Sequence record: OL960580
Length of the DNA stretch: 64,000 nucleotides
Reading direction: 5' to 3' (one strand)
From: Escherichia phage vB_EcoM_SA21RB
This document shows, in pieces, positions 39,359-43,203 of this stretch (position 1 is its first letter; every line of letters begins with the position of its first letter). The notes below the pieces were generated by a model that saw only the letters and a list, made by a program, of their open reading frames with translations, was not told where the DNA came from and searched no databases. Position numbers and translations under genes: made by a program.

Positions 39359-39652
39359 TCAGCTGTAACGATAACACTCGTTTGATTTACGTTTAGCAAC
39401 TCGTTGAGAAGTATTATAATCAAAATCATCGTCAATGTAAACTGATTTTTTCAACTTTCTTACTTCACCGCGTAATTGACGATTTAGCTCATCTTTAACT
39501 TCTGAATCAATACCTTTCATTCTACGCCATTTATCTGAGCGAAAAATGTTTTCAACCATATCTTTATGACTTACACCATCAGGAGCTTTACGCTTTCCGA
39601 AATAGTCATAATCACGTACTTTTAAATCTTTACGACGATACGTTTTACCCAT
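39359..39652 (-). CDS. highly basic small protein (putative nucleic-acid binding)
   Basis: ORF track extends to 39697; ATG 39652 with AAGGAAA SD gives 97 aa, Lys/Arg-rich. Confidence 0.45.
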   Translation of the reverse strand: MGKTYRRKDLKVRDYDYFGKRKAPDGVSHKDMVENIFRSDKWRRMKGIDSEVKDELNRQLRGEVRKLKKSVYIDDDFDYNTSQRVAKRKSNECYRYS

Positions 39653-39821
39653 GGAGTTTAATTTCCTTAGCAACTGAACTAAATACAGCACGATCACAAA
39701 CCATGCGTTTGTTCCATTTAATCACAGTATAATGAACATCTAGATCATCGACTGCTGTAACAATAACGATATGTCCGTTAACACGATAGTACTGGTCAAT
39801 TTTAATCTCTTTATCAACCAT
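39645..39821 (-). CDS. small hypothetical protein
   Basis: 58-aa ORF below the track cut-off; GAGGAA SD; stop overlaps the next ATG. Confidence 0.4.
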   Translation of the reverse strand: MVDKEIKIDQYYRVNGHIVIVTAVDDLDVHYTVIKWNKRMVCDRAVFSSVAKEIKLHG

Positions 39822-39851: not shown

Positions 39852-39881
39852 ATAATACCACGGTTTGAACCTGTTGTAAAC
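39852..39881 (-). promoter_or_regulatory. T4-type early promoter
   Basis: minus strand AT-rich upstream, GTTTAC, 18 nt, TATTAT. Confidence 0.5.
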
Positions 39882-39962
39882 AACTTTGTGAAAAATATTT
39901 TAGGGAATGATAAGAAAGGAACGATAGCTTAGAATGGTAATATACAGAATGTAAGAAAGAAA

Positions 39963-39975
39963 GGCCCAGAGGGCC
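39963..39975 (-). terminator. hairpin terminator after the glutaredoxin-like gene
   Basis: minus RNA GGCCC-UCUG-GGCC followed by UUUCUUUCUU. Confidence 0.5.
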
Positions 39976-39978
39976 GTC

Positions 39979-40302
39979 TTAATCTTCTATGATATCTCTA
40001 TCATATCCAAGTGAAATGAGAGTTTCTTTGAAGTGTTTAATGTTCTTTTGTCTAGAATCATTAATGAAAATGACTGGATAACGAATGTTAAGAGATGTGA
40101 ATCCAGCGCGTTTAGCAAGAGATACAATCAGTGGACGATCATACTCAATCTTACCATTATTAGTGAGGACTTTATAAAATGTATAAGGAGCATTGAGCTC
40201 CTTTAAAAGTTTTGTAACTGATTGACATCCAGGACAACGACCTACTTCATCTGGAATTCCATAGACTTCAATCTTATTCTTTAAGTTCGAGTTTTGTTCC
40301 AC
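39979..40302 (-). CDS. glutaredoxin/NrdH-like redoxin, start codon uncertain
   Basis: CPGC active site in ...IEVYGIPDEVGRCPGCQSV...; no in-frame ATG nearby; candidates are GTG 40302 or ATT 40272; the track's 150-aa extension from GTG 40431 looks spurious. Confidence 0.55.
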   Translation of the reverse strand: MEQNSNLKNKIEVYGIPDEVGRCPGCQSVTKLLKELNAPYTFYKVLTNNGKIEYDRPLIVSLAKRAGFTSLNIRYPVIFINDSRQKNIKHFKETLISLGYDRDIIED

Positions 40303-40585
40303 GAGAAATAATTCCTTGGTAAGCCCAATAAGGAGGATTAACAGAATCCTCACCAGAGTTTTCTTCAGGAAAATAAACCTGGATAACAAATCCAGACGCA
40401 TCAAAGGTAAAATAAACCGTAGGTAGTTCACCTAACAATTCGGCACGAGTATTAATTTCTTCGAGATCTCGTTCACGTCCAGCCCAAAAACTAGGATTTA
40501 GACTACATTCGTAAAAATAATAGTCATTACCGAACATATCAAAACCCTTCCAACTCTCTACCACATACCGCTCAAAACTAATCAT
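40274..40585 (-). CDS. hypothetical protein
   Basis: 103 aa. Confidence 0.5.
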   Translation of the reverse strand: MISFERYVVESWKGFDMFGNDYYFYECSLNPSFWAGRERDLEEINTRAELLGELPTVYFTFDASGFVIQVYFPEENSGEDSVNPPYWAYQGIISRGTKLELKE

Positions 40586-40587
40586 AA

Positions 40588-40803
40588 TTAAGCCTTTTTA
40601 TCAAGAACAGAATTCAGCTTGTTAGTAATTTTATCCAGACGCTCATTAAACTCACTAGAAGATAAGCCCTTTTCTGGAGAAATTAAACTAATAACGAAAA
40701 ATATAGCAATAAAAGGAATAAGGAAAATAGCTCCAACTGCCATAAACAGAAAGAATGTTACAGTTGTAAGAAAATCAGCTAAACCTTTACGAAATTTATA
40801 CAT
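40588..40803 (-). CDS. small membrane protein
   Basis: 71 aa with one long hydrophobic segment. Confidence 0.5.
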   Translation of the reverse strand: MYKFRKGLADFLTTVTFFLFMAVGAIFLIPFIAIFFVISLISPEKGLSSSEFNERLDKITNKLNSVLDKKA

Positions 40804-40918: not shown

Positions 40919-41389
40919 TTAATCATGTTTCCACACCCCATCGGTATTTGACCAAAGTCGCTGATTATCTGATCCTCTCCACAGCTTTTTGGTAGGAAGA
41001 TTTTTCTCATACTTCCCATCAATAATAACATCAACATATTTAAGCATTTCTAGTTGTTTAATATCTTCAAATTTATATCCTGTCCACAACCAAATGCTTT
41101 TATTTGGATAAAGATTTTTTACTGTTTGAACAATGCAATGAACAACATCTCTGTTATCAGGATAAAGAGGGTCACCCCCAGTTATAGTTAATCCTTCTAT
41201 ATAATCATTATTTAAACATTCAATTAATTGTTCTAGTGTTTCACCAGTGAATGGAACGCCATTTCTAGCATTCCATGTTGATTTATTATAACATCCTTCA
41301 CATTTATGCAAACATCCCGTAACGAAAAGAACGACCCTGCATCCAGGGCCATTCACAAAATCACAGGGATAAAATCTATCGTAATTCAT
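40919..41389 (-). CDS. nrdG: anaerobic ribonucleotide reductase activating protein (radical SAM)
   Basis: 156 aa; CxxxCxxC-type cluster (GCLHKCEGCYN); adjacent to nrdD. Confidence 0.9.
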   Translation of the reverse strand: MNYDRFYPCDFVNGPGCRVVLFVTGCLHKCEGCYNKSTWNARNGVPFTGETLEQLIECLNNDYIEGLTITGGDPLYPDNRDVVHCIVQTVKNLYPNKSIWLWTGYKFEDIKQLEMLKYVDVIIDGKYEKNLPTKKLWRGSDNQRLWSNTDGVWKHD

Positions 41390-43203
41390 TGGTGTTTAAC
41401 CCTATGCATGATTTCTTTATTTTTGCCAAGATTAAATCCGCGTTCGTTCGGATTTCCCAAATAACCACAAGTTCTTCTTATTGTGTTCATCTTTTTAGGA
41501 TCAGTTTCTCCACAAATAGAACAAACAAATCCGTTTTCAGTAGGAGTCATTTCATGGGTACTTCCACATGTAAAACATTTATCTACTGGCATGTTAACAC
41601 CAAAATAATCTAAATGTTGTGCAGCATAATCCCATACAGCCTCAAGACCTTTTAGGTTATTTTTCATATCAGGAAGTTCAACATAAGAAATGTGACCACC
41701 TGTCGCAATGAAATGATATGGGGCTTCTCGAGAAATCTTTTCAAACGGAGTGATATTTTCTTCTACTGAAACGTGGAAACTATTAGTGTACCATCCTTTA
41801 TCAGTAACATCCTTTACACTTCCATATTTTTCGGTATCGAGTTTACAGAAGCGATAACACAAGTTTTCAGCAGGTGTAGAATACAAGCTAAAAGCAAAAC
41901 CAGTTCTTTCAGTCCACTGCTTAAGACGAGCATTCATTTTAGTTAAAATTTCCTGTCCAATATCACGACCGACAAGAATATTCAATTCGTGAATACCGAT
42001 GTATCCTAGGGACACTGAACTTCTACCATTTTTAAATAACTCAATTATGTCATCATCAGGTTTAAGACGAACCCCGAATGCACCTTCTTGGTAAAGAATA
42101 GGAGCAACAGTCGCTTTAACTCCTTTTAAGGAACTAATTCTACACATCAAAGCTTCAAAACACAAATCCATTCGTTCATTGAACAATTCAACAAATTTCT
42201 GTTCATTGAACTGTGTTCCAATATAAGAATCTAATGCAATACGAGGAAGATTCAGTGTTACAACGCCAAGATTATTACGTCCATCAAGAATTTCATTACC
42301 AGTCGAATCTTTCCATACACTCAAGAAACTGCGGCAACCCATTGGAGAAACAGGAATAGATGAACCTGTGATAGCTTTATTGTTCTTAGCCGAAATGATG
42401 TCAGGATACATTCTTTTGCTTGCGCACTCTAAAGCAAGCTGCTTAATATCATAGTTCGGATCGTCTTTATAAAGATTAACACCTTCTTCAACGAACATAA
42501 CAAGTTTAGGGAAAATAGGAGTTATCCCATCACGACCGAGACCTTTAATACGATTTTTCAGAATTGCTTTCTGAATCATTCGTTCAGTCCAGTCAGTTCC
42601 CGTACCAAATGTAATTGTTACAAAAGGCGTTTGCCCGTTTGAACTAAAGAGAGTATTTACTTCATACTCATAAGCTTGAAATGCATCGTATACGTCTTTT
42701 TCTGTTTTAGATTGGGCGTAATTCAACGCATCAGCGATTTGCCATTTTTCTGCGTCCTCAATATGTTTTGCATAGGTGCGTTTAACATAAGGAGAAAGTA
42801 CTTTATCTACATTCGCAAAAGTCGTTCCGCCATATTGGTGGGAAGCAACCTGTGCAGTAATTTGCGCCATAATTGCAGTAGCAACGCCGATTGATTTAGG
42901 AGTTTCAATCTGTGCATTACCGAGCTTAAATCCGTTCTCAAGCATTCCTTTTAAATCTACTAAACAGCAATTAGTAAATGGAAGAGCAGGGGAATAATCA
43001 ATATCGTGGAAATGGATAATTCCGCTTTCATGCGCTTTCATAATAAAAGACGGGACCATATTTTTGGCAATGTGTTTAGACACAATACCAGCCATAAGGT
43101 CCCGTTGAGTTGGAAAAACACGAGAATCTTTATTAGCATTCTCGTTTAAAAGGTCTTTATTAGTTTTATGAATTAGTCCTTCAATTTCTTTTTCAATCGT
43201 CAT
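41386..43203 (-). CDS. nrdD: anaerobic ribonucleoside-triphosphate reductase, uninterrupted
   Basis: 605 aa continuous ORF; C-terminal Zn ribbon CFTCGS...CSICG and glycyl radical region RTCGYLG. Confidence 0.95.
   Translation of the reverse strand: MTIEKEIEGLIHKTNKDLLNENANKDSRVFPTQRDLMAGIVSKHIAKNMVPSFIMKAHESGIIHFHDIDYSPALPFTNCCLVDLKGMLENGFKLGNAQIETPKSIGVATAIMAQITAQVASHQYGGTTFANVDKVLSPYVKRTYAKHIEDAEKWQIADALNYAQSKTEKDVYDAFQAYEYEVNTLFSSNGQTPFVTITFGTGTDWTERMIQKAILKNRIKGLGRDGITPIFPKLVMFVEEGVNLYKDDPNYDIKQLALECASKRMYPDIISAKNNKAITGSSIPVSPMGCRSFLSVWKDSTGNEILDGRNNLGVVTLNLPRIALDSYIGTQFNEQKFVELFNERMDLCFEALMCRISSLKGVKATVAPILYQEGAFGVRLKPDDDIIELFKNGRSSVSLGYIGIHELNILVGRDIGQEILTKMNARLKQWTERTGFAFSLYSTPAENLCYRFCKLDTEKYGSVKDVTDKGWYTNSFHVSVEENITPFEKISREAPYHFIATGGHISYVELPDMKNNLKGLEAVWDYAAQHLDYFGVNMPVDKCFTCGSTHEMTPTENGFVCSICGETDPKKMNTIRRTCGYLGNPNERGFNLGKNKEIMHRVKHQ

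Follow-up and report, generated by a model that had tools for sequence, protein, structure and literature searches.

We analysed a 64,000-nucleotide stretch of the genome of Escherichia phage vB_EcoM_SA21RB (sequence record OL960580; the window, below) and, within it, the region around a glutaredoxin-like gene on the minus strand. By its sequence the gene is identified as nrdH, which in T4-type phages encodes the second of the glutaredoxin-like proteins. It closes an nrdD-nrdG-55.8-ORF103-nrdH block and is followed by a homologue of gene 55.6 (39645-39821). The features of the locus were as follows:

41386-43203, minus strand: nrdD, 605 aa, uninterrupted
40919-41389, minus strand: nrdG
40588-40803, minus strand: gene 55.8, a 71-aa predicted membrane protein (phrog_1930, E = 3e-36)
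40274-40585, minus strand: ORF103, a 103-aa gene of the RB69 ORF082c / RB51 ORF079 type (phrog_2749), with its TAA stop at 40276-40274
39979-40431, minus strand: mechanical ORF of 150 aa, the longest open frame, beginning with GTG
40303-40431, minus strand: upstream part of the 150-aa mechanical ORF, not nrdH coding (on substitutions, Shine-Dalgarno signal and a TGA in Gaprivervirus, see below)
40313-40317, minus strand: Shine-Dalgarno (SD) sequence AAGGA, 10 nt upstream of GTG 40302
39979-40302, minus strand: nrdH coding sequence, 107 aa plus TAA stop; T4-type glutaredoxin-like protein, orthologue of T4 NrdH
40300-40302, minus strand: GTG start codon of nrdH, aligning with the annotated GTG of T4 and T2 nrdH
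40274-40302, minus strand: overlap of ORF103 and nrdH, 29 nt, with nrdH in the +1 frame relative to ORF103
40225-40236, minus strand: CPGC redox-active motif (Cys23-Pro-Gly-Cys26), read from the sequence
39981-39979, minus strand: TAA stop of nrdH, read from the sequence
39953-39975, minus strand: intrinsic terminator directly after the nrdH stop, GGCCC-TCT-GGGCC and then TTTCTTTCTT (39975-39963 plus a T run)
39852-39880, minus strand: strong sigma-70-type promoter, TTTACA, 17-nt spacer and TATTAT with an upstream TG

Gene 55.8, whose product is named gp55.8 in the annotations of UFV-AREG1, T4 and T2, stops 2 nt ahead of the ATG of ORF103. The closest public record, that of UFV-AREG1, lists in the same order nrdG, gp55.8, a hypothetical protein and an nrdH glutaredoxin of 324 nt with the same GTG start, and the identical 324-nt coding sequence was annotated in ATK48, Shf125875, AV110 and CHD16UKE1 as well. 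A 751-nt query over the junction matched 657 phage records with identities up to 98.9%, almost all of them Tequatrovirus (T4-like) phages of Escherichia, Shigella and Yersinia. In the 40919-43203 region nrdD is a single ORF abutting nrdG and lacks both T4 mobile elements, whereas in T4 (NC_000866, 42446-46385) nrdD is split by a group I intron carrying I-TevII and is separated from nrdG by the homing endonuclease gene mobC. A terminator was annotated at the equivalent place in ATK48, and a 'terminator' feature lay under the match in vB_EcoM_112 and ASO78A. The promoter at 39880-39852, a good one of early type, sits between this terminator and the 55.6 homologue, and the two elements therefore mark a transcription-unit boundary right after nrdH. 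The search for a separate nrdH promoter inside ORF103 gave as its best candidate a 9/12 consensus match, no better than shuffled sequence, so nrdH is most likely translated from the nrdD-nrdG-55.8-ORF103 transcript.

The 107-aa product scored 24.1 bits against the Pfam Glutaredoxin model PF00462 (cut-off 22.9) and matched the thioredoxin-domain family phrog_22 with E = 3e-16; together with the CPGC at 40236-40225 this bears out the clear redoxin domain noticed in the initial annotation. Identity with T4 NrdH (NP_049686.1) was 97% in a 12-sequence alignment, and tblastn gave 99% with the T4 and T2 records over 97 aa, counted from an ATT codon onward (see below). Both CPGC cysteines were invariant among the 12 aligned NrdH sequences, with the CxxC placed after the first beta strand. 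The closest solved structure was the T4 NrdC glutaredoxin ('T4 thioredoxin'; PDB 1AAZ, 1ABA, 1DE1 and 1DE2), with E about 2e-3. Its first beta strand and its CxxC can be aligned with those of the window protein, CPGC standing against the CVYC of NrdC (1AAZ), but the similarity is weak and NrdC differs in having CVYC instead of CPGC, in its locus, in its ATG start and in lacking an N-terminal leader. In the NCBIfam scan the bacterial NrdH-redoxin model gave no match at E <= 0.01, and the sole match, TIGR02196 (YruB-type glutaredoxin-like), scored 16.5 bits where the cut-off is 88.55. In the phages the name 'NrdH' is thus a label and not a statement of membership in the bacterial family. Glutaredoxin activity of T4 NrdH was reportedly described by Gvakharia et al. 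in 1996, a study cited in PMC8022965. The note in the T4 nrdH record reads 'NrdH glutaredoxin; related to T4 thioredoxin but has glutaredoxin activity', and in PMC2993671 nrdH figures as one of the quasi-core genes for auxiliary metabolism in T4-related phages.

The gene had been singled out in the initial annotation for the apparent lack of a canonical start codon. Direct reading of the minus strand confirmed that no in-frame ATG exists between 40302 and the conserved IEVYG strand. The frame there runs GTG(40302-40300) GAA CAA AAC TCG AAC TTA AAG AAT AAG ATT(40272-40270) GAA GTC TAT GGA, in agreement with the two candidates named at the outset, GTG 40302 (with a 29-nt overlap, 40274-40302) and ATT 40272; the 150-aa version likewise begins, as had been noted, at a far-upstream GTG (40431) within the reading space of another gene. 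GTG is a standard start codon in bacteria and phages, and it is the annotated nrdH start in the T4 and T2 references, so that 'without a canonical start codon' was an overstatement. SD strength was expressed as the duplex energy (dG) with the 3' end of 16S rRNA:

GTG 40302: -5.4 kcal/mol
ATT 40272: -0.9 kcal/mol
ATG 40401: -2.4 kcal/mol
GTG 40431: +0.1 kcal/mol
60 long ORFs in the window, reference: median -5.65 kcal/mol
Random positions, reference: median -1.0 kcal/mol

The SD of GTG 40302 is therefore on a par with that of a typical gene of the window, ATT 40272 has none, and no SD was found at any of the standard start codons within 40303-40431.

Comparison with T4 and T2 placed the same site at an annotated start. 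T4 nrdH (T4p072, NP_049686.1, formerly ORF Y55.7) is a 309-nt coding sequence that opens with GTG (TAAGGAATAGTTGTGAAACAAAATAAGATTGAAGTC); T2 nrdH is likewise annotated from GTG, and the start context of both is AAGGAATAGTTGTGAAACAAAATAAGATTGAA. The window sequence AAGGAATTATTTCTCGTGGAACAAAAC...AATAAGATTGAA matches T4 base for base except for indels of 4 nt and 15 nt, the window reading AAGGAAT-TATTTCTC-GTG-GAACAAAAC-(15 nt)-AATAAGATTGAAG and T4 reading AAGGAAT-AGTT-GTG-AAACAA-AATAAGATTGAAG. This alignment makes the T4 start site the homologue of GTG 40302 and its AAGGA. The two genes also share the CPGC site, the position after nrdD-nrdG-55.8 and before 55.6, and the terminator, but the leader in the window is five codons longer (MEQNSNLKNK vs MKQNK) and the spacer between SD and GTG is 4 nt longer. 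A further difference is that T4 and T2 lack the 103-aa gene, which in the window separates 55.8 from nrdH and overlaps the latter by 29 nt. In T4 and T2, gene 55.8 stops 2 nt ahead of the nrdH GTG, and ORF103 is reduced to its final ~25 nt, which carry the SD and the start codon; in T4 an in-frame TAA lies four codons ahead of the nrdH GTG. As the sequences indicate, a deletion of ORF103 in T4/T2 left the end of 55.8 running into the ORF103 remnant in another reading frame. Loss of ORF103 in T4/T2 is more parsimonious than its gain elsewhere, since at least five named genera carry the gene and T4 retains the 3' remnant. The C-terminus of gp55.8 was ...VLDKKA in the window (with its stop, 40588-40610, minus strand) and ...ALSKE in T4 (with its stop, L002:4117-4140). 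In the phage collection, the window-type junction occurred in 419 records and the T4-type junction in 211.

Conservation of the start was examined in 48 IMG/VR loci and 19 annotated phage records. The loci with an upstream ORF103 homologue carried, in all but four of those sampled, an SD and an in-frame GTG 15-30 nt before the I-E-V/I-Y-G motif. The in-frame GTG was found in Tequatrovirus, Mosigvirus, Gaprivervirus, Dhakavirus and a lineage represented by L042, L043, L045 and L070 (L042-type); the exceptions were L036 and L037, with TTG only, and the Pectobacterium phage PM2 pair L044/L072, with the GTG one base out of frame (see below). The start regions were:

Tequatrovirus (window type) and Mosigvirus: ...AAGGAATTATTTCTCGTGGAACAAAAC...
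Gaprivervirus: AAGGAGTGATTTCCTGTGGGCCAAAAC
Dhakavirus: AAGGAGTTATTTCCTGTGGACCAAAAG
L042/L043/L045/L070 lineage: GAAGGTGGTATTACACGTGGAAAACCAA

The counterparts of the SD were AAGGA in T4, AAGGAG in Gaprivervirus and Dhakavirus and AAGGTGG in the L042-type loci. The nrdH genes of Mosigvirus, Gaprivervirus and Dhakavirus (e.g., Shf125875, vB_EcoM_RZ and JS98) resemble that of the window, the end of ORF103 again enclosing the SD and the GTG, but differ in leader (GTG at -21 or -30) and in overlap length. In Gaprivervirus and in L011 an in-frame TGA lies two codons ahead of the GTG; because of this TGA and the T4 TAA, GTG is the only standard start (ATG, GTG or TTG) common to these lineages. The check proposed in the initial annotation, a comparison with the orthologous start in related phages, thus returned GTG in T4, in T2, in four genera and in the L042-type lineage.

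One relative replaced the codon by ATG. In the Dhakavirus-like locus L058 (IMGVR_UViG_2974741249_000001, ~680-720) an ATG stands at that very codon (...TTATTTCCTATGGACCAAAAG), while its sisters L038-L041, L063 and JS98 have GTG there; the change from GTG to ATG is a Cys to Tyr replacement in the overlapping upstream gene. The initial annotation would have taken such a relative as a sign of a local sequence error. However, the ATG of L058 replaces the homologous GTG in L058's own genome, and it therefore confirms the start site and implies no error in the window. The two sequence features of SD-led initiation at a standard start codon were both found at GTG 40302, namely an SD at a working distance and a codon that is conserved or exchanged. 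In the papers searched, no usable data were found on the T4 NrdH N-terminus or on T4 ribosome profiling or proteomics.

Lineages without ORF103 start differently. In Jiaodavirus JD18, Roskildevirus Cronus, Gelderlandvirus STML-198, Pseudotevenvirus Lw1 and Lazarusvirus AM101 the start was an ATG 1-4 codons before the first strand, and in Karamvirus one 8 codons before it. JD18 NrdH begins MIEIYG and T4 NrdC begins MFKVYG; judging by these N-termini, the 10-residue leader is dispensable for the fold and a shorter product is structurally possible. In more distant relatives, L036 and L037 (contigs of about 171-175 kb) and L071, TTG was the only standard start just before V-E-I-Y-G, so non-ATG starts recur in the NrdH gene family.

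Substitutions were tallied between the window and seven relatives, the upstream part being the whole ORF103 region, 40303-40585. Read in the nrdH frame, this part had 0-3 synonymous against 5-26 replacement changes (e.g., 1:17 to 1:26), whereas in the ORF103 frame changes were mostly synonymous (e.g., 14:4 to 22:6 synonymous:replacement). Past the overlap the nrdH frame was conserved, with synonymous:replacement counts of 9:1 to 26:11. Between the SD and the ORF103 stop, a span of 45 nt, there were 0-2 differences, against 4-14% over the region as a whole. A T>C change in Shf125875 abolishes the ORF103 TAA and extends that protein by 2 residues, yet in the nrdH frame it is a synonymous AAT>AAC; L008, which has a T4-type leader, has the same synonymous AAT>AAC.

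We consider it highly probable that nrdH starts at GTG 40302 behind the AAGGA at 40317-40313, encodes 107 aa and owes its GTG to the overlap with ORF103. Homology, conservation, SD strength and the coding-frame signal are what was observed, and from them we infer that ribosomes would use GTG 40302. Translation directed by the AAGGA would begin there and yield a protein with the N-terminus MEQNSNLKNKIEVYG. Ribosome-binding site and start lie inside the last ten to 15 codons of ORF103, where the GTG is spelled C/T-GT-G, and this position within the end of another gene would be the reason for a GTG instead of an ATG. T4 and T2 would have kept GTG because they lost ORF103 but retained its last ~25 nt, with SD and GTG.

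A start at ATT 40272 would be a rare AUU start, of the kind used by Escherichia coli infC, giving a 97-aa protein from the first beta strand, (M)IEVYGIPDEVGR or (M)EVYG. The codon is in frame immediately ahead of EVYG, and the product would resemble the N-termini of JD18 NrdH and T4 NrdC given above. However, its dG of -0.9 kcal/mol is at the random-position median, with no SD, and a good SD-GTG pair lies 30 nt upstream. Moreover, the codon varies among relatives (ATA, ATC, GTT, GTA, GTC or GTG), and the codons between GTG and ATT behave as nrdH coding sequence, with the synonymous AAT>AAC described above. This start, listed as available in the initial annotation, is very improbable. AUU initiation of the infC type, with a conserved AUU and a ribosome-binding signal of its own, was rejected as a model for the site, where the codon was variable and a signal was lacking.

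A fusion of ORF103 and NrdH by a +1 ribosomal frameshift near the ORF103 end was considered because of PM2. In this phage (NC_028940.1, 41901-42500, corresponding to L044:407-1006) a single 199-aa ORF, annotated as 'glutaredoxin', spans the ORF103 homologue and nrdH, and the conserved GTG is present, 20 nt instead of 21 nt before the ATT and inside an A7 run. A single ORF spanning both parts would favour a fusion, as would the fact that the nrdH frame of the window is open through part of ORF103. Nevertheless, PM2 alone, 1 of 543 records, has both parts in one frame, by a one-base difference in the A7 run; no further fusion was found, and 541 other records with both parts had them in two frames. 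In Gaprivervirus the stop two codons before the GTG would force the shift to fall inside the short overlap, direct reading revealed no evident slippery or prfB-like site at the ORF103 stop, and T4 and T2 make NrdH without ORF103. A frameshift fusion hence appears barely credible, and the programmed-frameshift candidate was rejected on the Gaprivervirus stop and the single fused record. The single frame of PM2 is most likely a homopolymer sequencing error.

A longer nrdH, from GTG 40431 (150 aa) or ATG 40401 (140 aa), would take in the LRFILPLMRLDLL... stretch. The frame is open back to 40431 and one public record, Yersinia phage PYPS2T, annotates a 423-nt version, but both codons lack an SD (+0.1 and -2.4 kcal/mol, respectively) and the stretch lies in the conserved ORF103. 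Upstream of 40302, substitutions in the nrdH frame were almost all replacements, and the open frame is not conserved, being closed by a stop two codons ahead of the GTG in Gaprivervirus and L011 and four codons ahead of it in T4, which leaves the longer gene a negligible probability. Equally negligible is a local sequencing or assembly error, or a pseudogene, which has the absence of ATG in its favour and nothing further, and against it a junction common to 419 phage records (in 130 of these with >=99% identity across its 78 nt), an intact nrdH frame 97% identical to T4 NrdH and the GTG of T4 and T2 nrdH. Thus, among the explanations put forward in the initial annotation, a GTG start overlapping the upstream gene stands, and an exotic start and an artefact do not, the junction being present in hundreds of independent genomes.

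Returning to the GTG 40302 start, the overlap itself may bear on the choice of codon. ORF103 matched no family in Pfam or NCBIfam, and a large protein database held only 4 cluster representatives of it, none with a Pfam domain. Read in the ORF103 frame, the nrdH GTG straddles two codons, taking its GT from Arg (CGT) or Cys (TGT) and its final G from the Gly codon that follows; an ATG at the nrdH start would need Tyr-Gly in that frame, as L058 has. The SD falls on the conserved Gln-Gly codons of the ORF103 segment ...YQG(I/V)IS(R/C)G. The non-ATG starts (GTG or TTG) of the sample all occurred in ORF103-bearing lineages or in T4/T2-type remnants, except in the TTG-only locus L071, where an ORF103 homologue was not detected. 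Since non-ATG starts track ORF103 or its remnant, this suggests that codon choice is constrained by the overlap. In genomes that carry ORF103, the SD and the GTG could owe part of their conservation to the YQG(I/V)IS(R/C)G C-terminus of ORF103, itself conserved; constraint on the start site and constraint on this C-terminus are told apart only by the T4/T2 deletion. P0002, a metagenomic ORF103 variant of 101 aa retrieved with the ORF103 of the window as query, changes to the third reading frame at ...YQG/NYFSWNKTQT, which implies a 1-nt indel within the nrdH SD region of that contig.

Overlapping gene pairs with the downstream ribosome-binding site inside the upstream gene allow translational coupling in bacterial and phage operons. 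The window is like such pairs in that the nrdH SD and start lie within the last 15 codons of ORF103, whose stop is 29 nt downstream, but unlike them in that no significant local RNA structure masks the nrdH site: the fold around the start (40243-40362) was no better than shuffled sequence (z = -0.47). Coupling of nrdH expression to ORF103 translation is plausible, because ribosomes on ORF103 would cross the nrdH SD and GTG and terminate 29 nt downstream, and it is not obviously required, as the local RNA fold is unremarkable. A stronger version would make ORF103 (phrog_2749) and NrdH functional partners, with the near-invariant overlap enforcing coupled low-level synthesis from a GTG start and PM2 as a real 'Rosetta stone' fusion. 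We regard this as unlikely; if true, the two proteins could, for instance, serve together as accessories to the anaerobic ribonucleotide reductase whose genes lie immediately upstream.

The GTG start of nrdH is on record in the reference annotations of T4 and T2 and in those of many relatives, and no new biology is implied. The extent of the gene is nevertheless inconsistent among public records. Many give 107 aa from the GTG, but JS98 (EF469154; L016:731-997) is annotated from an internal ATG, which gives 88 aa and removes the first beta strand and is probably a mis-annotation, and PYPS2T (MT828551; L075:327-749) from an upstream ATG inside ORF103, which gives 140 aa. In HMD-9 (PV287714) nrdH is uncalled, and in ESh34 (ON528744) none is listed under the match. 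The value of the present analysis lies in annotation: the comparative evidence fixes the nrdH start at the GTG, resolving these conflicting records, and explains the GTG of T4 and T2 as the remnant of an overlap.
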